A stretch of DNA of 64,000 bases from assembly GCA_047638695.1 (NCBI GenBank), contig JBLINY010000005.1:28075-92074 (forward strand). The letters run 5' to 3'. The notes beneath the pieces were generated by a model, which saw only the letters and a list, made by a program, of their open reading frames with translations, had not been told where the DNA came from and made no database searches. Both the position numbers and the translations under genes were made by a program. This DNA is from Acidimicrobiales bacterium (lineage in GTDB: Bacteria > Actinomycetota > Acidimicrobiia > Acidimicrobiales > SZUA-35). Shown here piece by piece: positions 23,820-63,695 of the stretch (position 1 is the first letter of the stretch; each line of letters starts with the position of its first letter).

Positions 23820-25046
23820 ATGATGAGCGCTGTGCAAGGAATCTTTGAAGGTCTGCGAGTGCTCGACTTCACCCAGGTACTGGCGGGCCCGACCGCAACT
23901 CGCTTGATGGTCGAAATGGGAGCCGAGGTCATCAAGGTTGAGATGACCCCGGCAGGCGATATGGGGCGGAGCCTGCCCCAGGTCCGTGACGGACGCTCCG
24001 GCTATCACGTGCAGCAAAACCGTGGAAAGCGGTCGATCTGTGTCGACCTGAAAGACCCTCGAGGGCAGCAGCTGGTACTGGACCTGTTGCCGCAGGTCGA
24101 TGTGATGATCCAGAACTTCGCCAACGGTGTGATCGAGCGTCTCGGATTTGGCTACGACGTTGTGTCGGTTATCAACCCTCGCCTCATCGTTTGCAACATG
24201 AGTGCCTTTGGTCGCACGGGACCCCTCAAGGATCATCCAGGCTACGACCCCATCGCTCAGGCCTATGGCGGGATACTTCACATGCTCGGATACGAGGATC
24301 GGCCGCCCGTGCTAGCCGGAATCTCTCCGGGTGACGTGCTCACGGGGGTCCATTCTTTTGGTGGCGTTGCGGCCGCGTTGTATCATCGGGAGCGCACCGG
24401 TCGAGGCCAAGAGGTCAGCGTTTCGCTACTCGACGCCTACGTCACAACTCACGAGGTCAACTGGCAGTCGTGGTCGGTCTCCAACGGTGTCGAACCCATC
24501 CGGCGGGGCAACGTTCATCCAGTGGTCGGCGGTGTAGGGGTCTTCGCTGTTGGTGACGGCGGGTATGTGGTGTTGGCCGCGGTGAACGATCAACAGTGGC
24601 GATCGACCTGTGAGGTCATGGGTCGGCCCGAGCTGGCGGCCGACGTCAGGTTCGAGACCAGCGCAGGGCGTTGTGAAAACCGTGACGCCATCAATCAGGA
24701 GGTCTCGCAATGGCTTTCCGCCCAACCCGATCGGGACGCAGTGATCGCCAAACTCGAGGCCCGGCGGGTTCCGACTGCCCCCGTGCTCACCTTGGCTGAG
24801 GCCGCTACTCATCCGCACTTGGTTGAGTCAGGGGCCATCCGCTGGGTCGACGACGATGTGCTTGGGCCGGTTCTCGTGCCCGGGATGCCCATCAAGTTCT
24901 CGGAATCCCCCGAAATGCTGTCCCTGGCCGCCCAACAGCTTGGCCAGGACAACGAGTACGTGACCTGCGACATTGGTGGTCGATCGCCGGCCCAGTATCA
25001 ATCACTCATCGAAGCCGGTGTCCTCGTGCACGACCAGGCAACCTGA
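23820..25046 (+). CDS. Family III CoA-transferase
   Basis: FEGLRVLDFTQVLAGPTATRLMVEMGAEVIKVE signature. 408 aa. Confidence 0.85.
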   Translation: MMSAVQGIFEGLRVLDFTQVLAGPTATRLMVEMGAEVIKVEMTPAGDMGRSLPQVRDGRSGYHVQQNRGKRSICVDLKDPRGQQLVLDLLPQVDVMIQNFANGVIERLGFGYDVVSVINPRLIVCNMSAFGRTGPLKDHPGYDPIAQAYGGILHMLGYEDRPPVLAGISPGDVLTGVHSFGGVAAALYHRERTGRGQEVSVSLLDAYVTTHEVNWQSWSVSNGVEPIRRGNVHPVVGGVGVFAVGDGGYVVLAAVNDQQWRSTCEVMGRPELAADVRFETSAGRCENRDAINQEVSQWLSAQPDRDAVIAKLEARRVPTAPVLTLAEAATHPHLVESGAIRWVDDDVLGPVLVPGMPIKFSESPEMLSLAAQQLGQDNEYVTCDIGGRSPAQYQSLIEAGVLVHDQAT

Positions 25047-25077
25047 GCCCGGGGCCAATCTCGCGGCCGATAGATGT

Positions 25078-25986
25078 CTATTCGGCCAGCGAGACCGTGA
25101 TCGTTGTGCCCTTACCCGGAGACGAGTCGATGGAGAAGTCGGCGTTGATCTCTGCGCTGCGTTCCTGCATGATCGATAGCCCGTAATGGTCCGACGTCAC
25201 CATGGTTGGGTCGAAGCCGGTGCCGTTGTCATGAATTGAAAGCGTGACTGCCGGTTCAGCAACCAGCCGGACGTCGACCACGGAGGCATCGGAATGGCGG
25301 CCCACATTGTTCAACGCCTCCCGAGCGATACGGCAGAGGGTGAGCGAATGCTCGACCGTAATGAACGTGGGTTGAAGAAGTGCTCGAATAGTGAGATCGC
25401 TCAGCGCGCTGCACCTGGCGACGATCGGAGTGAGTCTTTCCGCTAAGTCAACGATGGACTCGGTTGGCAGCTGGACGTGCTGCATCAGACTTCGTGTCTC
25501 TTCTCGCGCTATAGAAGCGAGGCCGTCGATCTTCTCGATCAGCGCTCGGTCCCGTGAGGTGAGATCCGCACTTCCTAGCGCCATCTCGGTGAGAAGGGCG
25601 AGGCTCCAAAGCGTGTTGCTCACCGTGTCGTGGAGATCGCGCCCGAGTTGTCTGCGCTCTCGTGAAGTCGATTGCCGGTAAGCCGCGGCCGCGCTCTGCT
25701 GGGCCACCACAGCGGCGGCCGAGCGCACACTTGTAATCGCAAGCTCAAGGCACGCGTCGAGGTCGCGAGTTGCGGCGGTATCGATACCACCCTCCGGCGG
25801 TAGCACACCTGATGTGGACAAGTCATCGATGATGTTTCTGAGATCGATGACGGCTGGCACAGCTGCGCTTCCGTGCGGCGACGAGTCTGCGAGGTTCAAA
25901 TCTTCGGTGGCTGTCAATCTCGGCCCCCCTGGCCGTGCTTCTGTTTGTATCGGTCCAGAGAACCGCCGCCCGCGAGTTGATTGCAC
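25078..25986 (-). CDS. Soluble NarL-partner type sensor histidine kinase (HisKA_3 + HATPase_c), no TM segment seen
   Basis: H-box RRQLGRDLHDTVSN, N-box REALNNVGRH, G1 DNGTGF, G2 SSPGKGTTI. GTG start at 25986. About 100 aa of N-terminal sequence has no assigned domain. Confidence 0.8.
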   Translation of the reverse strand: MQSTRGRRFSGPIQTEARPGGPRLTATEDLNLADSSPHGSAAVPAVIDLRNIIDDLSTSGVLPPEGGIDTAATRDLDACLELAITSVRSAAAVVAQQSAAAAYRQSTSRERRQLGRDLHDTVSNTLWSLALLTEMALGSADLTSRDRALIEKIDGLASIAREETRSLMQHVQLPTESIVDLAERLTPIVARCSALSDLTIRALLQPTFITVEHSLTLCRIAREALNNVGRHSDASVVDVRLVAEPAVTLSIHDNGTGFDPTMVTSDHYGLSIMQERSAEINADFSIDSSPGKGTTITVSLAE

Positions 25987-26108
25987 TTACTGCAACAGGA
26001 TGCTAGCTGAATCACCATCATGCATCAGTGATGCAGGGACCTAGGTGACGCAGAAGTGCCTAGGGTGCGGTAGCAGTTGGGGTGCTGCTCTTCCCATCTC
26101 ACGTGGCT

Positions 26109-26501
26109 CTAACTGGGAGTGTCGGGGAAAGACTCTCGACCACTTGCTACTAACCGGATGGCATCGCGTAGTTCGTCGAGCGAGGTTCCCTTGGCGACGA
26201 AACCGCTACATCCAGCCTTGCGAGCCGCATCATGACCCGCTCGTTCAGCGCCGCTCATCAGCAGAACGCGAGTGCGACTCGTTTCGGCTGCAGTTTTGGC
26301 GGCCTCGGTGCCGCGCCGAGTGCCCAAGCGAAAGTCGACCAACAGGACGTCGATCTCAAGTTCGTCAAGGCGACCCTCGAGTGGTTCCAAGCCGGTTGCC
26401 GTCTCGACGACCTCTATGTCCAGGGTTGCTGATAACCCAAGCGACAAGCTGTCCAGGAGCATGGCGTGATCATCGACGATGGCGACTCGGATGGGAATCA
26501 T
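26109..26501 (-). CDS. Stand-alone receiver-domain response regulator (no output domain)
   Basis: The start is taken at ATG 26501 (MIPIRVAIVDDH...). Acidic pair DD, phosphoacceptor context VLLVDFRL, LLMSG and FVAKG. It stops after about 130 aa, and the 120-nt gap before the kinase gene is too short to encode an HTH. Confidence 0.8.
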   Translation of the reverse strand: MIPIRVAIVDDHAMLLDSLSLGLSATLDIEVVETATGLEPLEGRLDELEIDVLLVDFRLGTRRGTEAAKTAAETSRTRVLLMSGAERAGHDAARKAGCSGFVAKGTSLDELRDAIRLVASGRESFPDTPS

Positions 26502-26734
26502 GGTGACCTTCGTCTTGCGGCGACAACAAACGAGAGTACCTGAGGCTCTCATGTCACGTAGGGCACCAAACTCGAACCCTGGAAATTGGCGGTCCACCAC
26601 CTGGCAACACCTTCAGCGCCTAACTCATCGACCTGTTGGTGCCGAGACTCGTCAAAATGGGCAGAGGCGACGCGACCGGACGGACTCGGAGGTCTGGCCG
26701 TGATCAGTCGTCACGCCTCTGACTCGGAGACCGC

Positions 26735-28168
26735 ATGATCGGCTCGGTCGTTGATGCTCTTCTGCTGCTCGTCGGCCTGGCGATCCTGGGTGGTGCTTTG
26801 GCGCATGCTCTTCTGATCCCCGCAGCGGTGATCGATCTTCGGCGATCGAAGGCCCGCGACCGGCATCGGCTCTGGCGGCGAGTACTCGCCTCTCCGTCGG
26901 CGCCGAGGGTGTCGGTGTTGGTTCCCGTATTCAATGAGGAGGCGACGATTCTCGAGTCGCTACAAGGAATTCGCTCGTTGACGTACCAGAACCTTGAAAT
27001 TGTCGTGGTCAACGACGGCTCCACAGATGCCACCGAGACGACGCTGATCGAAGGTCTGGACCTTGTCGAAGTCCGCTCAGAGTACGAAGAGCCATTCGAG
27101 ACCGAGACCGTCGTCCGCTTGTATCGATCCCGAACCGATCAGCGGTTGGTCGTGGCCCAGAAGCTCAACGGCGGCAAGGCAGATGCCCTCAACGCCGCTC
27201 TCAATCTGGCTTCCGGTTCGCTGGTCTGTGCCATCGATGGAGAGACGACCGTCTCACCTGACGCCCTTCAGAAACTGGTCGTGTCCTTTGTCGACCGGTC
27301 CGATGTCGTCGCCGCAGGGGGGTCGCTTCGTCTTTCGAATAGTAGCCTCGAGCCGGGATTGACCGGTCTGCGTGCTGTTTTTCCGCGAAGCCTCTGGGCC
27401 GCGTGTCAGGCGGTCGAGTACGCCCGAGCCGGTCTGATCAGCATGCCGGCATGGAATCAACTCGGTGGGAACCTGATCACCACGGGCGCGTTCGGCGTCT
27501 TCCGGCGATCCCGGATTATCGAGGCGGGCGGGTATCTCGACGGTTCAATTGGGGAAGACGCCGAGTTGATCGTGAGGCTCCGGCGCCTTGGTTACGAGAA
27601 CGGGCATTTGGCCCGAGTCGTCTTCATCGCCGACCCGGTCGCGTGGACAGATGCGCCCGAGCGATTGTCTGAGCTGCGGCGCCAGCGAAACCGTTGGTAT
27701 CGGGGTTTGTTGGAGGTCCTGACGCGGCATCGGGGGATGATCTTTCGGCCAAGATATCGCTCAGCAGGCCTCCTCGCCCTGCCCTACTTGCTGCTGGTGG
27801 AGGCGTTGGCACCGATCATTGAGGCATTCGGGCTCGTCGTGCTGGCAACGGCGGTTTTCGCTGGTCTGGTGTCGGCGGAACAGCTTGCCTTCATGGCCGC
27901 GGTGTACAGCCTCGGTCTTCTCGTCTCGATAGCGGCACTGCTTCTGGACGACGTCGCCTTCGGTACCCCAAAGAGCCTTGCCGGCCGGCTCAGGATGGTG
28001 GTGGTTGCAACCATCGAACACCTGGTCTTTCGTCCGCTCACTGTTTGGTGGCGTCTCGATGGATTGCATGATTGGCTACGTGGTCGCGGCGACTGGGGAA
28101 CACAGGTCCGCCGAGGTATGGGGCCGAAAACGGAGTTGCCCCCAGCACTGCCCAAGATTCGCGTCTAG
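26735..28168 (+). CDS. Processive family-2 glycosyltransferase (PgaC/IcaA/cellulose-synthase-like beta-glycan synthase)
   Basis: N-terminal TM, VSVLVPVFNEE, VVVNDGSTD, GGKADALN, CAIDGET, GEDAEL and QRNRWYRG (QxxRW), followed by C-terminal TM helices. SD GGAGA lies upstream of ATG 26735. Confidence 0.85.
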   Translation: MIGSVVDALLLLVGLAILGGALAHALLIPAAVIDLRRSKARDRHRLWRRVLASPSAPRVSVLVPVFNEEATILESLQGIRSLTYQNLEIVVVNDGSTDATETTLIEGLDLVEVRSEYEEPFETETVVRLYRSRTDQRLVVAQKLNGGKADALNAALNLASGSLVCAIDGETTVSPDALQKLVVSFVDRSDVVAAGGSLRLSNSSLEPGLTGLRAVFPRSLWAACQAVEYARAGLISMPAWNQLGGNLITTGAFGVFRRSRIIEAGGYLDGSIGEDAELIVRLRRLGYENGHLARVVFIADPVAWTDAPERLSELRRQRNRWYRGLLEVLTRHRGMIFRPRYRSAGLLALPYLLLVEALAPIIEAFGLVVLATAVFAGLVSAEQLAFMAAVYSLGLLVSIAALLLDDVAFGTPKSLAGRLRMVVVATIEHLVFRPLTVWWRLDGLHDWLRGRGDWGTQVRRGMGPKTELPPALPKIRV

Positions 28169-28238
28169 CCAAATTGGTAGACCGGCCCGTCATTCGGTCC
28201 GAGCCGAGCATCGGTCCATCACAGTGAGTTGTCGAGTT

Positions 28239-28263
28239 GTCGCTGCAACGAATCTGCAGCGAC
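28239..28263 (+). other. 9-bp perfect stem-loop immediately 5' of a strong SD
   Basis: GTCGCTGCA-acgaatc-TGCAGCGAC, followed directly by GGAGGAG (28264-28270) and ATG 28275. It could be a terminator for the GT2 gene or a translational element. Confidence 0.3.
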
Positions 28264-28274
28264 GGAGGAGTGAG

Positions 28275-28535
28275 ATGGACACGAACGCCACAGGAGAATC
28301 TGACATGTCGAAGGAGTCAAGGCGAGCCCTGCATGCGTACATCAGTCCCGACGCACACACGCTCTGGCATGACTTCGGTCGAGATCAGGGTGTGAGCGTC
28401 AGCGCGGTGCTGGAGGTGTTTGCCGCCGAACTGGCCCTTGATGGGCCTACATCGACGGAGCCGATGCATGATCGTCTTCAATCTGTCGTTGCCACGGCAC
28501 GGGGACTGGACTACCGACGGCGACGGCTTGTCTGA
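28275..28535 (+). CDS. Small hypothetical protein (86 aa)
   Basis: Strong SD GGAGGAG 4 nt upstream of ATG 28275. Coding-like composition. No family recognised. The track ORF 27978..28535 begins inside the GT2 gene. Confidence 0.55.
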   Translation: MDTNATGESDMSKESRRALHAYISPDAHTLWHDFGRDQGVSVSAVLEVFAAELALDGPTSTEPMHDRLQSVVATARGLDYRRRRLV

Positions 28536-28607
28536 GTCCCGGATGAGTGTGGCGGCAGGAATCCGGCGAATGTTTGTATCAAAACCTACGTAGTAAATGG
28601 TCATCTT

Positions 28608-28625
28608 CCTATCAAATTTGATAGG
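28608..28625. promoter_or_regulatory. Perfect 18-bp palindrome CCTATCAAATTTGATAGG (operator-like, copy 1)
   Basis: Read directly from an AT-rich intergenic region. It ends 51 nt upstream of the 28676 start codon. Confidence 0.45.
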
Positions 28626-28645
28626 TAAGCGAAGACTGTAGCACC

Positions 28646-28662
28646 CCTATCAATTTAGATAG
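28646..28662. promoter_or_regulatory. Operator-like motif copy 2, CCTATCAATTTAGATAG
   Basis: Same CCTATC-N6-GATAG architecture, 14 nt upstream of the 28676 start. Confidence 0.4.
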
Positions 28663-28675
28663 TCATGTCTACTAA

Positions 28676-29338
28676 GTGATGAAAGATGTGCGATGGCGCA
28701 CGAATATCATCCTTGTGGAAGCATCACCGATACGCGTAATCCTTTGTGAGTCACGTCGGGTAATTGGGGAGGCGCTAGGTGAGCATCTGACAAGAACCGA
28801 AGGCCTCTACTGTCTCGGCATAGCCAAGAGCTACTTCGCTGCCCGCCGAGCCCTCGCCGGCGTATCGGCCGATGTGGTGCTGGTGGGGCTGAACTTTCAT
28901 GAAGAGGAAGTTCGCTCACTTATCGGTGAATGTGCGCCTGGGCGGGTCGTCTTTCTGGCCAATCAAGTAACACAGTCGATGGTTGCTCTTCAGGCCGAAT
29001 ACCCAACATTTACCGTCGTGTCGGCGGCGGCATCACTGGCTGACCTCGTCGAAAATCTGCGCGGCGAGCCGGGAGTCGATCTTCTTGGCGATGCCGTGCC
29101 GACCGGGCACCTATCGCCCCGTGAGTCCCAGACGCTGAGTCTGCTGGTTCAGGGGATGAGCCCGACAGACATCTCTGAACATCTGTACGTCTCGATTCAT
29201 ACGGTCCGCTTTCATATCAGGGCACTACTGGCCAAGTTGGACGTGAGTAGTCAGGCCGCGGCGATCGTGGCCGGAATCGAGCAAGGACTCGTGTCGCCCC
29301 CGGCACTTACGTCCCACGTTCACGCCGGGGTCGCCTGA
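28676..29338 (+). CDS. LuxR/GerE-HTH regulator with a degenerate (pseudo-)receiver domain
   Basis: C-terminal LSPRESQTLSLLVQGMSPTDISEHLYVSIHTVRFHIRALLAKLDV is a LuxR-type HTH. The N-terminal receiver-like fold has CES where the DD pair should be and VVLVGLNF where the phospho-Asp should be. Confidence 0.75.
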   Translation: MMKDVRWRTNIILVEASPIRVILCESRRVIGEALGEHLTRTEGLYCLGIAKSYFAARRALAGVSADVVLVGLNFHEEEVRSLIGECAPGRVVFLANQVTQSMVALQAEYPTFTVVSAAASLADLVENLRGEPGVDLLGDAVPTGHLSPRESQTLSLLVQGMSPTDISEHLYVSIHTVRFHIRALLAKLDVSSQAAAIVAGIEQGLVSPPALTSHVHAGVA

Positions 29339-29507
29339 GGTAGGCCGAGATCGGTACCGCTGCTGCGATCTGCACCCGCTGCCGCGACCAGCACGACCGG
29401 TGGCCGTCTCGCGCCAACCCATCGCTATTTCACGAACAAGTCCCGAGGACGAACAACCTCCCAAAATTGGTAAGTGTCACCGACAGGGGTTGACCTGCGC
29501 AACTACG

Positions 29508-30230
29508 GTGCATTCCTTGACCACGAGTCAGCACGTTTCCCGGGTATCGCTCGTCGACGACCATCGCTTGTTTGCCGAGGCGCTAACTCTGGCCCTTGAA
29601 CTTTCAAGTGATCTTCGAGTCACGAGCAACTCCATCGATGCTCCGACCGGCTTCGATGCCATCGTCCAAACCCAGCCGGATGTGGCAGTTGTCGACTACC
29701 GGCTCAAGGGGTCCGACACAGGAGTTGACCTCGCCCGGCGCATTCGGGCGGCCGAGGGCCGGGAATCGGCCTGGTTGGCGCGGCTGCCCATCGTCTTGTT
29801 GACCGGGTTCCCTACCCCCGGCGTTCTGCGAACAGCGGCCACGCTTGACGGCGTAAGCGTGCTGTCGAAGGACTCGCCGATTGTCGACATCGTGGCGGCG
29901 CTGCGGGCCGTTCTCGTCGGTACGGCGCTAACTGCCATGCCGGAGCAGAATTCGTTCGGTCTGACGCGCGGTGAACTGGAGGTACTCGAGTTCCTGTCGA
30001 CGGGTTTGAACGCCAGCGAGATTTCTCGAACGCTTTGCGTGACGATTCATGCCGTCCGAGCTCGGATAAAGACGACCCTCAAGAAGCTCGACGTCAACAG
30101 CCAGCTTGAGGCAGTTGCGATAGCCACCCGACGTGGAATCGTTGTCCCGCCACAGAGTGACCAGAGGTCCAAGGGCGTCGGTCAGCTTCACCACACTTCC
30201 CAGCTGATCCCGGATCATTCTGCCGTTTGA
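29508..30230 (+). CDS. NarL/FixJ-family response regulator (REC + LuxR HTH)
   Basis: VSLVDDHRLF (DD), VAVVDYRL (phospho-Asp), LLTG, LSKD. HTH LTRGELEVLEFLSTGLNASEISRTLCVTIHAVRARIKTTLKKLDV. The start is uncertain: GTG 29508, TTG 29490 or GTG 29400. Confidence 0.8.
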   Translation: MHSLTTSQHVSRVSLVDDHRLFAEALTLALELSSDLRVTSNSIDAPTGFDAIVQTQPDVAVVDYRLKGSDTGVDLARRIRAAEGRESAWLARLPIVLLTGFPTPGVLRTAATLDGVSVLSKDSPIVDIVAALRAVLVGTALTAMPEQNSFGLTRGELEVLEFLSTGLNASEISRTLCVTIHAVRARIKTTLKKLDVNSQLEAVAIATRRGIVVPPQSDQRSKGVGQLHHTSQLIPDHSAV

Positions 30231-30242
30231 CCGCCGCGCTCA

Positions 30243-30259
30243 CCTATCTATTTAGACAG
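30243..30259. promoter_or_regulatory. Operator-like motif copy 3, CCTATCTATTTAGACAG
   Basis: Same half-site spacing. It ends 51 nt upstream of the in-frame ATG 30310 of the next ORF, the same distance as copy 1 from its gene. Confidence 0.4.
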
Positions 30260-30264
30260 AATGC

Positions 30265-30744
30265 GTGTCATTGCCTGCGAGATGGTGGGCTCACTTCCGA
30301 ACGAGCCCTATGGACAGAGAGCGCCTCGCGTCGATTCTGAATAGCGGCCGTGAGTTGGCAGTTATCCGTCTATTCTGCAACCTGTTGGTGCTGTCATCGC
30401 CGTTTGTTGCCTTCGGCATAGTTTGGTGGCTGAGACCAGTTCTTCAATCGGTGTCCTCCGACTCATCATCGTCTCCCGACATCATGATGCTCTGCCTATT
30501 TCTTGGAATTCCTACAGCTCTGGCGTTGCGGCGATGGCGGATGCTGCTGATTACTAGCACGCGGCTCGATAATAGTCAGAGGCTCAACACGATGGCAGAG
30601 AGCACCTCGGTGGTCGCCGGCTCGACCAGGTCGGCTGTTTCTGCAGCTCGGCAGATCACCCCGGTCTCAACGACGATCGTGCTTCACTGCACTTCCCGTC
30701 CGGTCCGACGCTCGACGCGTTGTCATCGACGTCCGGTTGCCTGA
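30265..30744 (+). CDS. Hypothetical small membrane protein (start may be ATG 30310)
   Basis: Two hydrophobic spans (LFCNLLVLSSPFVAFGIVWWL and MMLCLFLGIPTALAL). Visibly lower GC than the surroundings. No homology recognised. Confidence 0.3.
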   Translation: MSLPARWWAHFRTSPMDRERLASILNSGRELAVIRLFCNLLVLSSPFVAFGIVWWLRPVLQSVSSDSSSSPDIMMLCLFLGIPTALALRRWRMLLITSTRLDNSQRLNTMAESTSVVAGSTRSAVSAARQITPVSTTIVLHCTSRPVRRSTRCHRRPVA

Positions 30745-30818
30745 GAGCATCCCTGCCGGTTTGACTAGTTCAACAGCGAACCCGTCAAACGCGCCGAGGC
30801 TGTACCGATCCGGAGACC

Positions 30819-31445
30819 ATGACCTTCACACCCGGCATCAGTTCGATCACGGGTCGCATCAACTCCATTGAGCAGAAAATCGCTCAGCTCGAACAGCGGG
30901 GCCGTACGAATGGCCTTGAGCCACTCGGCTTTGGGATGATGCTCGACAATCAAGTCGCGGCGAACGCTCAGGTCACAACGTTGGGTGGTGTGTTCGATAG
31001 TGCAGGCTTGACACCCGCGACTCAACGAGCGCCCGGCCAGTACGGTCGACTCCAGCCCCCGGCAGCACTCGTGGCCTTCGGCAACGGGCAGGTGCCGGCG
31101 GCAGCCCTCGAGCCCGTCGGCGATACGGGCCACCGTCTATGGGCTCCTGCAGCCAACGGCCTGACTCGTCTCATAGCCAATGCCGAAGCGGCCGGAGTGA
31201 CGATTGGGATCACCGACAGCTACCGACCGCTTGGTGTTCAAGAGCGACTGGCGAAAGAGAAGGGTCTCTACAGCCAGGGAGGGCTGGCAGCCACACCAGG
31301 GACCTCAAACCACGGTTGGGGACTGGCGACAGATCTCGACTTGGATGCCGACGCCCTTGCGTGGATGCGAGAGAACGGACAGCGGTACGGGTTTGTCGAA
31401 GACGTGCCACGCGAGTCGTGGCATTGGACCTACCGGCCCGACTGA
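30819..31445 (+). CDS. Peptidase M15 (VanY / D-Ala-D-Ala carboxypeptidase-like) cell-wall hydrolase
   Basis: ITDSYRPLGVQERL...ATPGTSNHGWGLATDL...AWMRENGQRYGFVEDVPRESWHW contains the H-x6-D ... H zinc-ligand pattern of M15 peptidases. The N-terminal ~60 aa are coiled-coil-like. Confidence 0.75.
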   Translation: MTFTPGISSITGRINSIEQKIAQLEQRGRTNGLEPLGFGMMLDNQVAANAQVTTLGGVFDSAGLTPATQRAPGQYGRLQPPAALVAFGNGQVPAAALEPVGDTGHRLWAPAANGLTRLIANAEAAGVTIGITDSYRPLGVQERLAKEKGLYSQGGLAATPGTSNHGWGLATDLDLDADALAWMRENGQRYGFVEDVPRESWHWTYRPD

Positions 31446-41085: not shown

Positions 41086-41231
41086 CCGAACGAGTCTCGG
41101 GCCGTGTTCGGGGGACTATAAGAGAAGGTCGTCGATCTCGAGTCCGGCCCCGTTTTGGCCAGTGGTGGAGCGACCCTATTCAGGTTGATAGTTGGTGCGC
41201 TGGTTCGTTATGTCAGGTCGGTGTGAACCGA

Positions 41232-42248
41232 ATGGCGATCATGCTCCGCACCAAGACACCATCCAAACAAGGCAACGAAGCCACCCCTCGAACCTCGCCC
41301 GCAAGCGCAAAATCGACGGTGGCCCTCACCCCCGAGGAGGAGGCCATCGTCGAGAAGAACCTTCCGTTGGTCAACCACATCGTCGGCCGAGTCACCGAGT
41401 TCTTTCCGGCCAGCGACAACGAGGACGATCTGATCCAGGCAGGCGTCATCGGTCTGATCGAAGCGACTCGACGGTTCGATCCCGATTTGGGCTTCGCCTA
41501 CTCGACGTTCGTCGGCCGCCGGATCGAGGGTGCCGTGCGCGACCATCTCCGCAACATGGACTGGGTACCCCGTTCGGTCCGCAGAAAAGAACGTCTTCTC
41601 CACCAGACCGAAGCCGAACTGACGGCTTCACTTGGTAGAGCTCCGACTGACGCCGAGCTGTGTTCCGCCATGGAGATTGAACGAGTGCAGTTGCACAAAC
41701 TGCGGGCCGACATGGATAGGACGCGGCTCGAGTACATCTTCGAATGGGGTCGGCCTTCGGACGGCAACAGCCGAGAGGCCGAACTGCCCGAGCTCGTAGC
41801 CGAGCGAGGTCCGGGCACCGATGACCTCGAGCACACCGAGTTGATGAGTTATCTGCGAGAAGGCCTCGAGCTGTTGCCGCCGCGACATCGCACGGTGATC
41901 GTTGGACACTTTCTCGAGGGCCGTTCGATGACCGAATTGGGAGAATTTCTGGGAGTTACTCAATCGCGTGCGTCTCAGCTCAAGTCCGATGCTCTGGAGA
42001 TGCTGCGACAGGGCCTCGAGGCGAGCTGGGCCAACGAAGGCGGCGACGACGCCGGCCGCTCTACTGAAAATCTCGACAATCCCAGTAAAAGGGCGGTCAA
42101 AGGGGTAGCAGGCGACAACCTCCGAAGCAACGAAAACACCGACCGTCCGGAACCCAGCAAGCGACAGCAGGCGTACAACGAGGCGTTGACTTCAGCATCA
42201 ACGTGGCAGGACCGGCTCGAGCGAGGCCACGTGGTAGCTGCTATCTAA
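41232..42248 (+). CDS. fliA: Flagellar sigma factor FliA/WhiG (sigma-28 family) with terminal extensions
   Basis: Region 2 DDLIQAGVIGLIEATRRFDPDLGFAYSTFVGRRIEGAVRDHLR. Region 4 HRTVIVGHFLEGRSMTELGEFLGVTQSRASQLKSDAL. The start is taken at ATG 41232, because the upstream part of the track ORF is antisense to fliM. About 70 aa follow region 4. Confidence 0.85.
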   Translation: MAIMLRTKTPSKQGNEATPRTSPASAKSTVALTPEEEAIVEKNLPLVNHIVGRVTEFFPASDNEDDLIQAGVIGLIEATRRFDPDLGFAYSTFVGRRIEGAVRDHLRNMDWVPRSVRRKERLLHQTEAELTASLGRAPTDAELCSAMEIERVQLHKLRADMDRTRLEYIFEWGRPSDGNSREAELPELVAERGPGTDDLEHTELMSYLREGLELLPPRHRTVIVGHFLEGRSMTELGEFLGVTQSRASQLKSDALEMLRQGLEASWANEGGDDAGRSTENLDNPSKRAVKGVAGDNLRSNENTDRPEPSKRQQAYNEALTSASTWQDRLERGHVVAAI

Positions 42249-47743: not shown

Positions 47744-47772
47744 CCCCGAGCCAGCTCTACTACTGCTCGGGG
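47744..47772 (+). terminator. Stem-loop after fliL (8-bp stem, no U-tract)
   Basis: CCCCGAGC-13 nt-GCTCGGGG, preceded by an A-run. It could act as an intrinsic terminator without a U-tract. Confidence 0.3.
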
Positions 47773-47881: not shown

Positions 47882-48682
47882 ATGCGTATTAACAACAACA
47901 TCATGGCGTTCAACGCCAACCGAAATCTGGGTAACAGCAACAATGCGCTGGGCAAGAGCCTGGAGAAGCTGAGTTCTGGTTATCGGATCAACCGTGCAGG
48001 CGATGATGCCGCTGGTTTGGTTATCAGTCAGAAGTTGCGGGCTGAGATTGGTGGTCTGAAGACCGCTTCTCGTAATGCCCAGGACGGCATCAGTTTCGTT
48101 CAGACCGCTGAAGGTGGTTTGGCTGAGGTTCACAACATGCTTGGCCGCATGCGTGACCTGTCCGTCCAGGCTGCCAACGACACCAACGATGCCGCCGCCC
48201 GAACTGCCATCGGCGCTGAAATCACGGCATTGAATGCGGAGATCACCCGGATCGGTGCTGACACCACGTTCGCTGGAAGTGCCGTGTTCGGTACTGCCGT
48301 GAACCTGCAGGTTGGTTCCGAAGGAACCGGCACCGCCGGTCAGATCACCATCGCGGCCACAGTCGCTCCAGCTGCAGTGGCCGGCACCGTCGACTCGGCG
48401 GTCAACGCCCGATTGATGATCGAGGCCGTCGATGCGTCGATCGCCACCATCTCAGCTTCTCGTGGTGCTCTTGGTGCCACCCAGAACCGGTTGGAGTCGA
48501 CGATCAACAACTTGCAGGTCACCACCGAGAACCTGTCGGCTTCGGAGTCCCGGATTCGGGACACTGACATGGCCGCAGAGATGGTCAACTTCACCAAGAA
48601 CCAGATCCTCCAGCAGGCCGGCACCGCGATGCTCGGCCAGGCCAACTCAGTACCACAGTCAGTTCTGAGTCTCCTCCAGTAG
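47882..48682 (+). CDS. fliC: Flagellin (short, D0/D1-only), copy 1
   Basis: MRINNNIMAFNANRNLGNSNNALGKSLEKLSSGYRINRAGDDAAGLVIS... and C-terminal NRLESTINNL...DTDMAAEMVNFTKNQILQQAGTAMLGQANSVPQSVLSLLQ. Confidence 0.95.
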   Translation: MRINNNIMAFNANRNLGNSNNALGKSLEKLSSGYRINRAGDDAAGLVISQKLRAEIGGLKTASRNAQDGISFVQTAEGGLAEVHNMLGRMRDLSVQAANDTNDAAARTAIGAEITALNAEITRIGADTTFAGSAVFGTAVNLQVGSEGTGTAGQITIAATVAPAAVAGTVDSAVNARLMIEAVDASIATISASRGALGATQNRLESTINNLQVTTENLSASESRIRDTDMAAEMVNFTKNQILQQAGTAMLGQANSVPQSVLSLLQ

Positions 48683-48695
48683 GCCAAATTCCTGA

Positions 48696-48721
48696 CCGCC
48701 ACGCCGGGCAAGGCGTGGTGG
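48696..48721 (+). terminator. Stem-loop just after flagellin copy 1
   Basis: CCACGCC-gggcaa-GGCGTGG, extendable with one G-U pair. It starts 14 nt after the stop. Confidence 0.4.
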
Positions 48722-48758
48722 CGACGGAGGCTCTCGTCTATTTCACCTGGGCATGACA

Positions 48759-48782
48759 GTCGAAGCCATGGACGGCTTCGAC
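48759..48782 (+). other. 9-bp perfect stem-loop between the two flagellin genes
   Basis: GTCGAAGCC-atggac-GGCTTCGAC. Confidence 0.4.
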
Positions 48783-48843
48783 CGTCGCCGCCCCTCTTGC
48801 CCTTTGGATCCGCTTCTGGATCCACCCCTAACAACAAAAGAAT

Positions 48844-48873
48844 CGTCTCCCACGGAAGGAACCTCGAGAGACA
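48844..48873 (+). promoter_or_regulatory. Conserved flagellin leader, copy 2 (candidate CsrA site over the SD)
   Basis: The 30 nt are identical to 47852-47881, at the same distance from the ATG. Confidence 0.4.
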
Positions 48874-49680
48874 ATGCGTATTAACAACAACATCATGGCG
48901 TTCAACGCCAACCGAAATCTGGGTAACAGCAACAATGCGCTGGGCAAGAGCCTGGAGAAGCTGAGTTCTGGTTATCGGATCAACCGTGCAGGCGATGATG
49001 CCGCTGGTTTGGTTATCAGTCAGAAGTTGCGGGCTGAGATTGGTGGTCTGAAGACCGCTTCTCGTAATGCTCAGGATGGCATCAGTTTCGTTCAGACCGC
49101 TGAAGGTGGTTTGGCTGAGGTTCACAACATGCTTGGCCGCATGCGTGATCTCGCGGTTCAGGGTGCCAACGACACCAACGATGCCGCGGCACGGACGGCC
49201 ATCTTCGAAGAGATGACTGCTCTCAACTCGGAGATCACCCGGATTGGTGCTGACACCACGTTCGCGGGAAGTGCCGTGTTCGGTGTCGCCGTGAACCTGC
49301 AGGTTGGTTCCGAAGGAACCGGTACCGCTGGTCAGATCACCATCGCGGCCACGGTCGCGCCAGCTGCAGTCGTCATTGGCGCAAGCATCGCCGATGCTGG
49401 CGAGGCTCGTGCCATCATCGAATTGACCGATACCGCGATCGCGACGATCTCGGCTGCTCGTGGTGCTCTTGGTGCCACCCAGAACCGGTTGGAGTCGACG
49501 ATCAACAACTTGCAGGTCACCACCGAGAACCTGTCGGCTTCGGAGTCCCGGATTCGGGACACTGACATGGCCGCTGAGATGGTGAACTTCACCAAGAATC
49601 AGATCCTCCAGCAGGCCGGTACCGCGATGCTCGGCCAGGCCAACTCAGTACCACAGTCAGTTCTGAGTCTCCTCCAGTAG
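48874..49680 (+). CDS. fliC: Flagellin (short, D0/D1-only), copy 2
   Basis: The first ~90 and last ~74 codons are near-identical to copy 1, with only a few synonymous differences. The centre is divergent. Confidence 0.95.
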   Translation: MRINNNIMAFNANRNLGNSNNALGKSLEKLSSGYRINRAGDDAAGLVISQKLRAEIGGLKTASRNAQDGISFVQTAEGGLAEVHNMLGRMRDLAVQGANDTNDAAARTAIFEEMTALNSEITRIGADTTFAGSAVFGVAVNLQVGSEGTGTAGQITIAATVAPAAVVIGASIADAGEARAIIELTDTAIATISAARGALGATQNRLESTINNLQVTTENLSASESRIRDTDMAAEMVNFTKNQILQQAGTAMLGQANSVPQSVLSLLQ

Positions 49681-49707
49681 CGGGCTTGTAATAAGGGAGG
49701 GACTCGA

Positions 49708-49744
49708 ACGAGCGGTCCCAGCGATCATTGCTGGGACCGCTCGT
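49708..49744 (+). terminator. Strong stem-loop (15-bp perfect stem, 7-nt loop) after flagellin copy 2
   Basis: ACGAGCGGTCCCAGC-gatcatt-GCTGGGACCGCTCGT. No U-tract follows. Confidence 0.55.
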
Positions 49745-49832
49745 GCTCAACTCCTGCGGTATTTCTACTGATCGACTGGCTGGCCTCCGAGACTTGGAAG
49801 TATCAGTCTCTTGAAGAGAGGACTTTGCAGAC

Positions 49833-51125
49833 ATGGCAAATATTGATGGCCTCTCGACAGGCCTCGACACGACAGCCATCATCGACGCGCTTCTGGCCGT
49901 CGAGCGGTTGCCGCAAGACCGGATCGTCGCTCGGCGGGCGAAGAGTCAAGCGGCGGCGACAGTGTTGGGCTCGCTCAAGACGAGCGTAGCCAACCTACGC
50001 AATAGCGCGGCTGATCTCCGACTCAGTTCCGGCTGGGAGAAACTTGTTGGCTCATCTTCATCAGAGACCGTGGCGGTGGAGGCTAGCTCTGGAGGTTTCA
50101 CCGGCTCTATCTCTTTCAGGGTCGATGCACTAGCGACCAGTCATGTCGTCTATTCAAACGATGTCTTTGAGACACTTGAGTCGCCTGCCGGTGCGACAAC
50201 CCTCGGCGAGCTGGTGGGCAGTATCAATGCCGACGCCGAGCTCGATTTCGTCGCTGTCGCCATTCAGACCGGCGAAGGGTTCCGGCTCCAGCTGGCGGCA
50301 AAGGAAGGTGGCGAGGGTTCGACCGTCGATCTCACCACTCCCTCGCTCGCCGGAATCGGATTTACGACCCTTACCGAAGGAGCGGATGCCCAGATCACGT
50401 TCGAAGGTTTGAATCCGTACAGCATCACCTCGAAATCGAACTCCTTCACCGATCTCATTCCCGGTGTGGTCGTCTCGGTTTCCGAAGTCAGTACGACACC
50501 GGTCACCGTGGCCGTTGGCCACGACTACGAGCAGATAGCCGACAGTGTCGAGGCCCTCGTCGCTCAGTTCAACGAATTGAAGACGACCATGGCAGCCTCC
50601 ACCCGCGTCGATCCGGGGCTGGCCAACCAGGTACCACTTGCCTTCAACAGCAACGTTCGCCGGTCAGAGCAGGCCCTCGTAAGCGCCTTTGTTAACCCGA
50701 TCAACGGCGCCGATTTATCGGCACCGAGCCAGGCCGGCATCACTCTGCAACGCGACGGCACCCTGGCGTTCGACCGCGACAAGTTCATCGAGGCGGCAAC
50801 GGCCGACAACGCGTCGGTCAGCCGGCTTTTCATTGCACCAGGCGCTGACGACGACCCGGGGATTCTCGACCGTTTGGTCGAGGCAGGCGACCTGGCGACT
50901 ACGTTCGGCACCGGCCTGTTGGCGACGGCTGAAGAGTACGAGAAGTCCCGAATAGAGGATTTTAGCGCGCAGATTGAAGCCTTTGAAGACCGCCTCATTC
51001 GAAAAGAAGAACAGCTAAGAAAGCTCTACTCGAATCTTGAAGTTGCCATCGGCAGCCTCAACAACCAATCGAACTGGCTGGCTGGCCAACTTTCTTCGCT
51101 CGCCGGCTCCGGAGGTGACTCGTGA
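49833..51125 (+). CDS. fliD: Filament cap protein FliD
   Basis: MANIDGLSTGLDTTAIIDALLAVERLPQDRI is a canonical FliD start. 430 aa. Confidence 0.85.
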   Translation: MANIDGLSTGLDTTAIIDALLAVERLPQDRIVARRAKSQAAATVLGSLKTSVANLRNSAADLRLSSGWEKLVGSSSSETVAVEASSGGFTGSISFRVDALATSHVVYSNDVFETLESPAGATTLGELVGSINADAELDFVAVAIQTGEGFRLQLAAKEGGEGSTVDLTTPSLAGIGFTTLTEGADAQITFEGLNPYSITSKSNSFTDLIPGVVVSVSEVSTTPVTVAVGHDYEQIADSVEALVAQFNELKTTMAASTRVDPGLANQVPLAFNSNVRRSEQALVSAFVNPINGADLSAPSQAGITLQRDGTLAFDRDKFIEAATADNASVSRLFIAPGADDDPGILDRLVEAGDLATTFGTGLLATAEEYEKSRIEDFSAQIEAFEDRLIRKEEQLRKLYSNLEVAIGSLNNQSNWLAGQLSSLAGSGGDS

Positions 51126-62189: not shown

Positions 62190-63695
62190 GTGACAGATCT
62201 CAACACCTCGCCGCCACCGTCGCCGACTCTCGATTCGCTGTTCGTCGAAGTCGAATCACTCCCGTCTCCTCCGGTGACGGTGTTGGAAGTAGTCAGGCGC
62301 TCCGACGACCCCGACGTTCAGCTTCCAGAGCTGGCGAAGCTCATCGAGTTCGACGTCGCGTTGGCCGTTCAGATCCTCCGAGTCGCCAACTCTGCGCTCT
62401 ACTCACCGGTGAGCGAGATCACCACGATCGAGCGGGCGCTCACCACACTTGGGTTGCGTTCGGTGCGGCTCTTGGCTTTGTCAGCATCGCTTCGGATGCT
62501 GATTCCAGATCAGGTTGACGCCTTCGACACCTCTGAGATCCGAAGACGCATGGTGATCAACGGAAGCCTGGCTCGTAAGTTCGCGGTGGCCATCGACCGG
62601 TCGCAACAAGATGAGGCGTTCGTTGCCGGCCTCCTGACCGGACTCGGTCCCGTGGTGCTGGCCAGCAAGGCACGGGAGATCTGCGATCAACTTGTCAGCG
62701 AAACGGGCAAATGGCCAAACATCGAGGCCCAGCGGGAGTTGCTTGGCTTTAGCTGTGATGACATCACGGCCAACTTGTTGCGGGATTGGGCCCTGCCAGC
62801 ATCTCTCTGCAGCGCGATTGAGGGACGAACCTCGCCCGCCCTGGAGGACGATTCAACGCTGCAGAGGTGCTTGCGGTTGAGCTTGTTGGCCGAGGATTTG
62901 CTGTGCGGCCCCGATCCCGGTTCCGCCCTCGGTGAACTGCACAAGGCCACTGAAGCCGAGTTGGGAATGTCGGCCGAGGAGACGAACGAGTGGCTGGTGG
63001 AGGCCGAACCATTAGTCGCCCAAGCTGCTGAATTGCTCCAGTTCCAATTTCCCCAGACTCAGGCCTACCCCGAGTTGCTCGTCGAGGCGACGCTTCGCAT
63101 GCAGCAACTCGCGCTCGAGGCTCATACGACGATTGTCGAAGGTTCCCGCGAACTCGAGGCAATGACGAAGCGCAATCAGCGGTTGAAACACGAGGCCTCG
63201 ACCGATGCGCTGACTCAGTTGGCCAACCGGGGACACTTCGATGAAGAGCTGGCGACCCAGTTGCTGGAGTCCCGCGCCTCCGTAGGCACGGGTGCCGTTG
63301 GTCTTCTGATCATCGATCTCGATCACTTCAAGGGGATCAACGACGCGTACGGCCACTCGGTCGGAGATGAACTACTCAGGTCCGTTGGTGATCTTCTTCG
63401 GAAACAACTGCGGGGCGACGATCTGCCCGCTCGATTCGGCGGCGATGAGTTCGTCGTTCTTCTGCCGCGAACCGACCTGGCAGAGCTCGAACTTGTGGCC
63501 AACCGGCTTCTTACTAATCTGCGGGCCATCGAATTCACCCTGCCAAGTGGTGAACCCTTGCAGTTCACCGTCAGCATGGGCGGCGCCCTTAGCGGCGAGG
63601 CCAAGAACGAAACGGCCACGACGTTGTTGCGTCGGGCAGACGAAAGGCTGTATCAGGCAAAGCGTCAGGGTCGTAACCAGCTGAGTTTGATCTGA
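62190..63695 (+). CDS. HDOD-domain / GGDEF-domain diguanylate cyclase with an I-site
   Basis: HDOD: LPELAKLIEFDVALAVQILRVANSALYSP...ALTTLGLRSV. GGDEF: DALTQLANRGHF...LLIIDLDHFKGINDAYGHSVGDELL...RGDDLPARFGGDEFVVLL, with RxxD five residues before GGDEF. Confidence 0.85.
   Translation: MTDLNTSPPPSPTLDSLFVEVESLPSPPVTVLEVVRRSDDPDVQLPELAKLIEFDVALAVQILRVANSALYSPVSEITTIERALTTLGLRSVRLLALSASLRMLIPDQVDAFDTSEIRRRMVINGSLARKFAVAIDRSQQDEAFVAGLLTGLGPVVLASKAREICDQLVSETGKWPNIEAQRELLGFSCDDITANLLRDWALPASLCSAIEGRTSPALEDDSTLQRCLRLSLLAEDLLCGPDPGSALGELHKATEAELGMSAEETNEWLVEAEPLVAQAAELLQFQFPQTQAYPELLVEATLRMQQLALEAHTTIVEGSRELEAMTKRNQRLKHEASTDALTQLANRGHFDEELATQLLESRASVGTGAVGLLIIDLDHFKGINDAYGHSVGDELLRSVGDLLRKQLRGDDLPARFGGDEFVVLLPRTDLAELELVANRLLTNLRAIEFTLPSGEPLQFTVSMGGALSGEAKNETATTLLRRADERLYQAKRQGRNQLSLI

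Follow-up and report, generated by a model that had tools for sequence, protein, structure and literature searches.

A pseudo-receiver LuxR regulator and its NarL-type partner in a probable species-private mosaic at the edge of a flagellar gene cluster

The window analyzed here is a 64,000-nucleotide stretch of contig C5 from the draft metagenome-assembled genome (MAG) of an Acidimicrobiales bacterium (G000; 258 contigs, 93% complete, 5.15-Mb assembly), and the subject of this work is the region between positions 25078 and 30744, at the edge of a flagellar gene cluster. In this region an operon encoding a cytoplasmic HisKA_3 kinase and a receiver-only response regulator is divergent from the gene of a GT2 synthase, which is followed by genes of an 86-amino-acid (86-aa) protein, a LuxR-type regulator with a non-phosphorylatable receiver, and a canonical NarL-type response regulator. 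A preliminary description of this DNA had interpreted it as a single regulatory and exopolysaccharide islet, in which a branched or sink-type phosphorelay controls a polysaccharide synthase. The anatomy proposed there was borne out, because all six genes with their stated domains were recovered using Pfam and NCBIfam, the kinase operon is divergent from the GT2 gene as described, the NarL-type regulator is complete, and the palindromes reported at 28608, 28646, and 30243 are real. The conservation of these features was determined from fetched loci, alignments, and a maximum-likelihood tree. Orthologs were searched for in 40 relatives, including five genomes of the same genus, those of the pseudo-receiver LuxR protein in 87 family genomes, and the widest search covered 5.8 billion proteins; all comparison genomes are draft MAGs, and the absence of an ortholog means that it was not found in the genomes searched. 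The resulting pattern suggests that the 25078–30744 region is probably a species-private mosaic, that is, variable DNA at the edge of the flagellar cluster, made of four unrelated pieces rather than of a system connecting signaling to polysaccharide, and that the two LuxR-type regulators form its only comparatively supported unit.

The first gene of this pair, located at positions 28676–29338 of the forward strand, encodes a LuxR/GerE regulator, in which the GerE domain was recognized at residues 146–198 (E 7.9e-13), while no match to Response_reg was obtained. The alignment of its residues 18–209 with canonical regulators showed that the phosphorylation-site residues DD, D, T, and K are replaced by ES, G (S in L148), A, and A, respectively, and by this comparison the protein is a true pseudo-receiver, as is its 70%-identical ortholog from the 4-kb metagenome contig L148. 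The L148 protein was the only one found beyond the family genomes, and among the 87 family genomes the gene was detected only in G022, where it is present in two copies. The protein is not a member of VisR, as its weak match to this NCBIfam model (E 4e-4) fell far short of the cut-off. The second gene (29508–30230, forward strand; Response_reg and GerE) probably starts from GTG at 29508, and it encodes a NarL-type regulator with all active-site residues present and without a kinase gene next to it. A NarL ortholog is located downstream from the pseudo-receiver gene also in G022 (52% identity) and in L148, where only the start of the gene is contained. Of the whole islet, only the pseudo-receiver/NarL pair recurs, and it does so in three genomes (G000, G022, and L148). 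The recognition helices of the two proteins are similar to each other (SIHTVRFHI and TIHAVRARI).

The NarL orthologs are more widespread than the pair. In another lineage, they (44–50% identity) are always preceded by a second LuxR-type regulator, which is canonical, with DD, D, T, and K present; therefore, the tandem appears to be older than the loss of the active site in its first member. A fixed gene context, consisting of alpha-amylase, the regulator pair, a hydrolase, a 2-oxoglutarate oxygenase, a short-chain dehydrogenase/reductase, and a peptide ABC transporter, was seen in L169–L172 and L175–L177 (including GCA_003704775.1). More distant orthologs (36–47% identity) in G061, G015, G052, G014, G024, and G011, which were considered as further copies of the unit, have neither GT2, nor pseudo-receiver, nor flagellar neighbors. 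Outside the family genomes, the nearest NarL ortholog (54% identity; L173:510-3169) is located between a divergent Bac_transf priming sugar transferase gene and a gene of a small histidine-phosphotransfer (HPt) protein, which is another polysaccharide-flavored context for this regulator family.

In G022 the pair is part of a longer arrangement. Contig C181 of this genome begins within the 3′ end of a pseudo-receiver LuxR ortholog, and from there to the end of the GT2 gene all genes are on one strand with gaps of no more than 59 bp. The pseudo-receiver gene is followed by genes of a GAF-HisKA_3 protein without the ATPase domain, the NarL ortholog, a receiver protein, and a membrane HisKA kinase, and then by a gene of about 650 aa, a gene of a HEAT-repeat membrane protein, a GT2 ortholog (65% identity), and an HDOD-GGDEF gene. 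On contig C23 of the same genome, flgE is followed directly by two palindromes and a copy of the pseudo-receiver gene, with which the contig ends. If C23 continues into C181, G022 carries the whole regulator-polysaccharide block between flgE and the cyclase gene. In the window, the HDOD-GGDEF diguanylate cyclase gene (62190–63695, forward strand; Pfam) is located directly after flgE, so a source of cyclic di-GMP (c-di-GMP) flanks the flagellar cluster. Its product is 62% identical to that of G022 C181:8623-10086, which directly follows the GT2 ortholog, and the adjacency of flgE and the GGDEF gene is found in G003 as well. Since the G022 pair heads a cluster ending in a GT2 ortholog, and a copy of the first gene lies at the flagellar-cluster edge in both genomes, the association of regulators, polysaccharide, and motility from the preliminary description is plausible, but it would run through neither the kinase nor the GT2 protein of the window. 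In G022 a single promoter upstream of the pair would probably drive a long same-strand operon ending in a complete polysaccharide operon and the diguanylate cyclase gene, and in the genome studied here the link between regulators and polysaccharide would have been broken by rearrangement.

The distribution of palindromes suggests how the pair may be controlled. Two operator-like palindromes, CCTATCAAATTTGATAGG and CCTATCAATTTAGATAGT, are located upstream of the pseudo-receiver gene (28608–28663, beginning at 28608 and 28646), with their centers 38 bp apart, and no other perfect CTATC-N6-GATAG site occurs in the genome. The third palindrome, CCTATCTATTTAGACAG (30243–30259), which has a GACAG half-site, is located 50 nucleotides (nt) before the ATG at 30310. 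Sites of the form CTATC-N6-GAYAG with only A or T in the spacer are restricted in the 5.15-Mb assembly to positions 28608, 28646, and 30243. In G022, where the palindromes are of the CTACC-N6-GGTAG type, the pseudo-receiver gene copy on contig C168 is preceded by CTACCCACCGTGGTAG and CTACCAATGGTGGTGA, and the copy on C23 by CCATCCACGGTGGTAG and CTACCAATTGTGGTAA, while CTATCCAAATTGAGTG, GTACCAATTTTAGTAG, and CTATCAATTCAGGTAG are located upstream of the gene in L148. Hence, 5-N6-5 palindromes (CTAYC-N6-GRTAG) precede the pseudo-receiver gene in all three genomes. The NarL ortholog of G061 has no pseudo-receiver partner, and still there is a GTACC-N6-GGTAC palindrome 73 nt upstream of its gene, which points to NarL as the putative binder of these sites. 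On the basis of these comparisons, the LuxR pair is best read as an autoregulated unit.

A related operator-like site, CCTATTCAGGTTGATAGT, was found at 41175–41192, in the 147-bp intergenic region between the divergent fliM and fliA genes. It is located 40 nt before the start codon of the sigma-28 gene (FliA/WhiG-type; 41232–42248, forward strand; Sigma70_r2 and Sigma70_r4), which is thus a candidate target of the pair. Operator sites with at most one mismatch occur 33 times in this genome, CCTATTCAGGTTGATAGT among them, and 40 times in the 4.3-Mb G022 genome, and the number expected by chance is about 0.001 per 150–190-bp target, with a value of about 0.002 for the fliM–fliA intergenic region of G022. 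At the orthologous place in G022 there is the site CCTACCCACGTGAGTAGT, one of those 40, which has that genome's own half-site variant: position 4/4′ is T/A in G000 and C/G in G022, in agreement with the operators preceding the pseudo-receiver gene in each genome. The site is the best conserved block in an intergenic region that is otherwise about 40% identical between G000 and G022, and it is absent from G003 and G013, both of which do not have the pair. The G002 cluster does not contain fliA; in this genome flgN directly abuts fliM without the sigma-28 gene in between (L168, G002:C2:996000-1012000), and the best fliA-like gene, with 36–39% identity, is located elsewhere. Other matches did not add to the regulon. 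A fourth CTAYY-N6-RRTAG site of the window, at 47760 upstream of a flagellin gene, falls inside a hairpin resembling a terminator and has no conserved counterpart in G022. In G022 itself, a perfect palindrome on C183 precedes a tRNA gene and a reading frame resembling the start of an integrase, a match on C7 resembles part of a tRNA gene, and a match on C49 precedes an MpaB-type oxygenase gene.

Several observations weigh against tying the pair to motility, or against the reading built on it. The fliA sites of G000 and G022 are positionally orthologous, and so not independent of each other, and the L148 operators mix T and C at position 4, which weakens the argument from covariation. A nearly identical palindrome, CCTATTCAGGCTGATAGG, is present at the promoter of the unrelated vapB-vapC genes on contig C184 of the same genome; therefore, such sequences can belong to other regulators. 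The pair is known from three genomes, and its flagellar link is testable in two of them. NarL orthologs occur in a non-flagellar context in the other lineage and in genomes without fliM, and the join of C23 to C181 in G022 is drawn across an assembly break inside a duplicated gene. Because there are only two, orthologous, sites, together with the T/C mix in L148, the vapBC palindrome, and the NarL orthologs in genomes without fliM, the chances that the pair is tied to motility are about evenly balanced even when the rest of the interpretation is accepted. As a separate observation, the promoter of the vapB-vapC toxin-antitoxin pair (C184:1208-1864) carries the palindrome CCTATCAGCCTGAATAGG, whose reverse complement almost matches the fliA-promoter site.

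The fourth piece of the mosaic would then consist of the pseudo-receiver LuxR gene and the NarL gene placed behind two CTAYC-N6-GRTAG palindromes. NarL, either alone or as a heterodimer with its non-phosphorylatable partner, similarly to BldM and WhiI, would bind the palindromes, and by activation or repression it would control its own operon and, with roughly equal chances either way, the fliA promoter. A more ambitious interpretation takes the LuxR and NarL proteins as a heterodimeric, autoregulated switch acting at their own and fliA promoters, which in its complete form, in G022, would share a transcript with a diguanylate cyclase gene and a polysaccharide operon responsive to c-di-GMP, and would serve as a master switch between motile and sessile life. 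This interpretation uses the same operators and the same G022 gene order, and the observations listed above bear on it as well; it is regarded as tentative, and clearly less probable than the mosaic.

On paper, the pair resembles three known systems. In Streptomyces, the atypical NarL/FixJ-family regulator WhiI heterodimerizes with the orphan NarL-type regulator BldM, and the sigma-28-family factor WhiG has whiI among its targets (PMC4125116, PMC12871210). Similar features here are the non-functional phosphorylation pocket in one protein, the NarL-type partner without an adjacent kinase, the palindromic candidate targets, and the association with a sigma-28-family factor in a genome of actinobacterial type. 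On the other hand, the genes described here lie next to each other and are probably co-transcribed, the active site of the canonical partner is complete, and the pair would act on the fliA promoter, while in Streptomyces the link goes from the sigma factor to whiI. The likeness is drawn from published descriptions, and the heterodimer is proposed from the adjacency of the genes and the similar recognition helices; the best NCBIfam model in this comparison was MadR, with a score far below the cut-off. In the CmrRST locus of Clostridioides difficile, which affects motility, a kinase is encoded together with one canonical and one pseudo-receiver regulator (PMC12548384, discussed in PMC12632262). 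It shares with the pair a pseudo-receiver regulator encoded beside a canonical paralog, and its phenotype concerns motility and the cell surface. However, the Cmr regulators belong to the OmpR family and have a dedicated adjacent kinase, as well as a c-di-GMP riboswitch/phase-variable switch upstream, none of which was seen here. The VisN and VisR proteins of Sinorhizobium and Agrobacterium are two adjacent LuxR-type proteins that together head the flagellar hierarchy (PMC4018554, PMC9812332). In common with them, there are two adjacent LuxR-type helix-turn-helix (HTH) genes in or beside a flagellar regulon, for which joint action is proposed, but VisNR have LuxR-type ligand-binding domains and act via Rem, while the proteins described here have receiver-type domains and would act via a sigma-28 promoter.

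The position of the islet raises the question of whether its genes are more than a by-product of rearrangement. To the right of the islet, the gene order beginning with a VanY peptidase gene is csrA, fliW, a small membrane protein gene, flhF, flhA, flhB, and further on fliM and the divergent fliA, the flagellins, and flgE. Synteny with G002, G003, and G022 extends from VanY to flhB, and past VanY each genome has different genes. The coenzyme A (CoA)-transferase gene on the left flank has its ortholog on a separate contig in G002, which is a genome of the same genus assembled in 7 contigs; therefore, the islet lies at a synteny break at the flagellar-cluster edge. The junction of the CoA-transferase and kinase genes was confirmed by an independent metagenome scaffold, L149, with 99.8% identity. 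In this 1815-bp scaffold, window positions 24626–25461 are joined directly to 49364–50311 with 97–99.8% identity, and the breakpoints are within the kinase gene (25461) and within the second flagellin gene (49364). The scaffold represents either a 23.9-kb deletion variant without the islet and half of the flagellar cluster, or a chimeric assembly. The window contains two tandem flagellin genes (47882–49680), which share near-identical stretches, and G002 contains three; the L149 junction is located in this repeat.

If the islet were inert debris, either a rearrangement scar or an acquired fragment, the palindromes would serve local autoregulation, and the fliA site would be a coincidence or would belong to another factor. 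The location at a synteny break is consistent with this explanation, as are the look-alike palindrome at the vapBC promoter, the scaffold that reads as a deletion of 25462–49363 in a related strain, and the GC content at third codon positions (GC3), which is 0.62–0.70 in the islet and slightly higher, 0.71–0.74, in the flanks. As a signal of horizontal transfer, this GC3 dip is small, and the islet contains neither an integrase nor a tRNA gene. Against the debris explanation, no reading frame is disrupted, three genomes share the operator architecture, and the fliA site is the best conserved intergenic block and tracks the genome-specific half-site. The 70% identity of the pseudo-receiver protein to its L148 ortholog, with the same degenerate active site, argues for purifying selection. 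Hence, inert debris is an unlikely explanation, which is weaker than the switch described above.

The first piece of the mosaic is the operon on its left side. The kinase is encoded on the reverse strand at 25078–25986, and both HisKA_3 (residues 110–175) and HATPase_c (residues 215–300) were above the Pfam cut-offs, with the H-box LHD, N-box, and DNGTG motifs visible. The protein has no hydrophobic segment and no recognizable sensor domain, with about 100 aa preceding the dimerization/His-phosphotransfer (DHp) helix; the gene caller of the collection places its start 42 aa later. The stand-alone NarL-family receiver of 130 aa (26109–26501, reverse strand; Response_reg E 1.3e-12) is encoded upstream of the kinase in the same operon. 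It likely starts from the ATG at 26501 (MIPIRVAIVDDH) rather than from the GTG at 26600, and its active site is intact, with DD, D, S, and K all present. Its nearest relatives in sequence are full-length NarL-type regulators of G022 and G009, the receiver halves of which are 41–44% identical to it. The protein ends 5 residues past the receiver, and the 122 bp up to the kinase gene contain no HTH remnant in any reading frame. The kinase has the domains expected in a classical HisKA_3/NarL pair, but the adjacent regulator is devoid of the LuxR/GerE output domain, and this sensor-less kinase and truncated receiver-only regulator would most simply constitute a self-contained pair. No ortholog of either gene was found in the 40 relatives, in which the best matches of the kinase had 32–36% identity and covered the kinase core only. 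Among the 5.8 billion proteins, the only close match of the kinase was the strain fragment from L149 (91% identity), and the next ones had 36–38% identity. The kinase and the receiver-only regulator are thus private to the species among the genomes searched.

These data bear directly on the branched relay, in which the kinase would phosphorylate both the receiver-only sink and NarL, and NarL together with the pseudo-receiver LuxR protein would control the GT2 gene. HisKA_3 kinases pair with NarL-family receivers, which they can in principle serve, and the local NarL has no kinase next to it. All of the genes are contained within 5.2 kb, and in G022 the LuxR pair does head a cluster that ends in a GT2 ortholog. 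However, the kinase and the stand-alone receiver are absent from all 40 relatives, the five of the same genus included, NarL orthologs occur without them, and in the other two genomes the LuxR genes are paired with different, unrelated kinase-like genes, which are the GAF-HisKA_3 gene without the ATPase domain in G022, and a gene of a GAF protein in L148. With 13 HisKA_3 domains encoded in the genome, NarL has 13 candidate kinases, of which the local one is a single member. Moreover, the 233-bp intergenic region between the receiver-only regulator and GT2 genes contains no palindrome or inverted repeat, and the GT2 protein of the window has lost its usual partners and diverged in a catalytic motif. 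The preliminary description had itself named the failure of these genes to co-occur in related genomes as evidence against its proposal, and the kinase and both receivers do not co-occur in the relatives searched; thus, its system-level claim fails on its own terms. A relay feeding the polysaccharide synthase is therefore considered very unlikely.

The GT2 synthase gene (26735–28168, forward strand; Pfam and NCBIfam) encodes a protein with GED (GEDAEL) and QRNRW motifs and transmembrane segments at both ends. It is PgaC/IcaA-like, with 116 bits against the TIGR03937 equivalog cut-off of 422.3, so it is not a PgaC/IcaA equivalog. The partners PgaB, PgaD, and BcsB are missing from its surroundings, as noted in the preliminary description, and the usual partners of GT2 proteins in this family are in fact different ones. 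Homologs with 47–65% identity are present in most family genomes, often in two copies. When 14 other GT2 loci were fetched and their open reading frames (ORFs) clustered, in all 14 a gene of about 650 aa was followed by a gene of an approximately 360-aa HEAT-repeat membrane protein and then by the GT2 gene, whose start is overlapped by the HEAT gene in G022. The GT2 gene of the window has neither of these partners, and no traces of the 650-aa or HEAT genes were found in the window. Elsewhere in this genome both genes occur solely on contig C65, next to the other GT2 paralog, and the 650-aa gene there is divided between two frames. A scan of a genome-contig collection with the GT2 protein returned only generic GT2 N-termini from other phyla, which were uninformative about synteny.

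In the maximum-likelihood tree, the GT2 protein of the window was placed in the 'type B' clade together with G022-C181 and G013 (support 97/98), but its terminal branch of 0.76 was long in comparison with 0.095 and 0.18 for the sisters. At positions that do not vary among the other 14 sequences, it carries 13 private substitutions, while most of those sequences have 0–4 and one, L019, has 9. The private changes include F233G/G236S/R237M/L238P and the replacement of the DxD motif, which is DAD in all 14 homologs, by DGE (A169G/D170E). Judged by these comparisons, the protein is an orphaned, fast-evolving paralog under relaxed or altered constraint, which is either decaying or changing its function, and not the center of a polysaccharide islet. 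As the second piece of the mosaic, this GT2 copy would have lost both partners and then evolved fast, including its DxD metal/UDP motif. A point against decay is that the reading frame is intact.

The three-gene operon itself was found in L017–L030, for example in L017:4009-8503 and L018:6165-10638, and in the C65 copy (L023:5753-10239), and it forms two paralogous clades. The 650-aa proteins have a phosphorylatable C-terminal receiver, which scores best against OmpR/PhoB-type models, and upstream of it a region weakly resembling GGDEF domains, where the GG(D/E)EF signature has degenerated and FRxxD…R is kept at the I-site position. The analogy with PelD, PssE, and YdaK suggests that this family is a putative c-di-GMP receptor. 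No description of an operon composed of the 650-aa, HEAT, and GT2 genes was found. From its domain composition, the operon looks like a c-di-GMP- and phosphorylation-controlled synthase with a new set of partners. Among the synthase-dependent polysaccharide systems with a c-di-GMP receptor are PgaCD, BcsAB, PelDEFG, Listeria PssCDE, and E. coli NfrB (PMC8461298, PMC8669469, PMC7112194). The GT2 protein has the QxxRW and GED motifs and the membrane domain in common with them, its relatives have a partner in which the GGDEF region is degenerate and an RxxD motif conserved, and in G022 a cyclase gene is next door. The family differs from these systems in having no PgaB, PgaD, BcsB, PilZ, or MshEN, and a HEAT-repeat membrane protein and the 650-aa multi-receiver-like protein are its partners instead, while the window GT2 departs even from the family norm by having neither of the two and by its DGE motif.

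The least probable explanation, that the GT2 protein is now a stand-alone synthase contacted directly by the single-domain receiver fed by the adjacent kinase, is prompted by the divergent orientation of the two transcription units, the intact GT2 frame despite fast evolution, and the fact that the free receiver would replace in kind the phosphorylatable receiver of the missing 650-aa partner, but the evidence for it is limited to the neighboring position of the genes in one genome, the free receiver belongs to the NarL type while that of the 650-aa protein is nearest to OmpR/PhoB-type models, and relaxed constraint better accounts for the change from DAD to DGE and for the altered F233-L238 segment.

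The third piece would be a spare copy of a small family-wide protein. The 86-aa protein is encoded at 28275–28535 of the forward strand, with the perfect Shine-Dalgarno sequence reported previously, GGAGGAG, 5 nt before its ATG. It is an extra paralog of a family-wide 78-aa protein, with 51–58% identity to the conserved copy, which in most relatives is located between glutaredoxin and gyrA/topoIV-A-like genes. The small-protein family has a mean column identity of 61% and up to six copies per genome (G013). The 78-aa protein (RKALHAYVSDDAH…GVSVSAILEAL…RRRRR), which is conserved at 50–58% across the family (L042–L050; C74:22132-22344 in this genome), belongs to an unannotated family. A ribbon-helix-helix (RHH) assignment of the 86-aa protein was rejected, as PSK_trans_fac gave 18.9 bits, below the cut-off of 28.3, and ParD and MazE7 gave E values of 0.041 and 0.059, respectively. 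Its AlphaFold2 model was all-helical, with a pLDDT of 74, and a Foldseek search with this model returned no match with E < 3. At the right end of the islet, a doubtful ORF of 144 aa with two hydrophobic helices (30310–30744, forward strand) had no Pfam or NCBIfam match and no homolog in the 40 relatives, and its codon-position profile is weak and atypical (GC1 0.53, GC2 0.55, GC3 0.63).

The preliminary description had extended the islet to position 31445, but the last gene of this stretch belongs to the flagellar cluster. This VanY/M15 peptidase gene (30819–31445, forward strand; VanY E 1.4e-11) has orthologs with 55–61% identity adjoining csrA-fliW-flhF-flhA in G002, G003, and G022, and by this synteny it is a conserved edge gene of the flagellar cluster, outside the islet. 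The peptidase carries an N-terminal extension of about 100 aa, and it is a candidate flagellum-associated peptidoglycan-remodeling enzyme.

In summary, the branched relay for a polysaccharide synthase does not hold as first proposed, which makes it unnecessary to pursue the kinase and the synthase copy, both private to a single uncultured species. For work on polysaccharide, the right object is the conserved three-gene synthase operon rather than the orphan GT2 gene of the window. To our knowledge, flagellar regulation in Actinomycetota-type bacteria is poorly understood, and the pair of a dead-receiver regulator and a live NarL-type regulator, with putative operators at its own and the sigma-28 promoters, is a concrete and cheaply testable candidate for a part in it. 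This candidate connects with the WhiG-WhiI/BldM circuit, which is well studied in non-motile Streptomyces. If the proposed switch is true, it would be the motility-side counterpart of that circuit in flagellated Actinomycetota-like bacteria.

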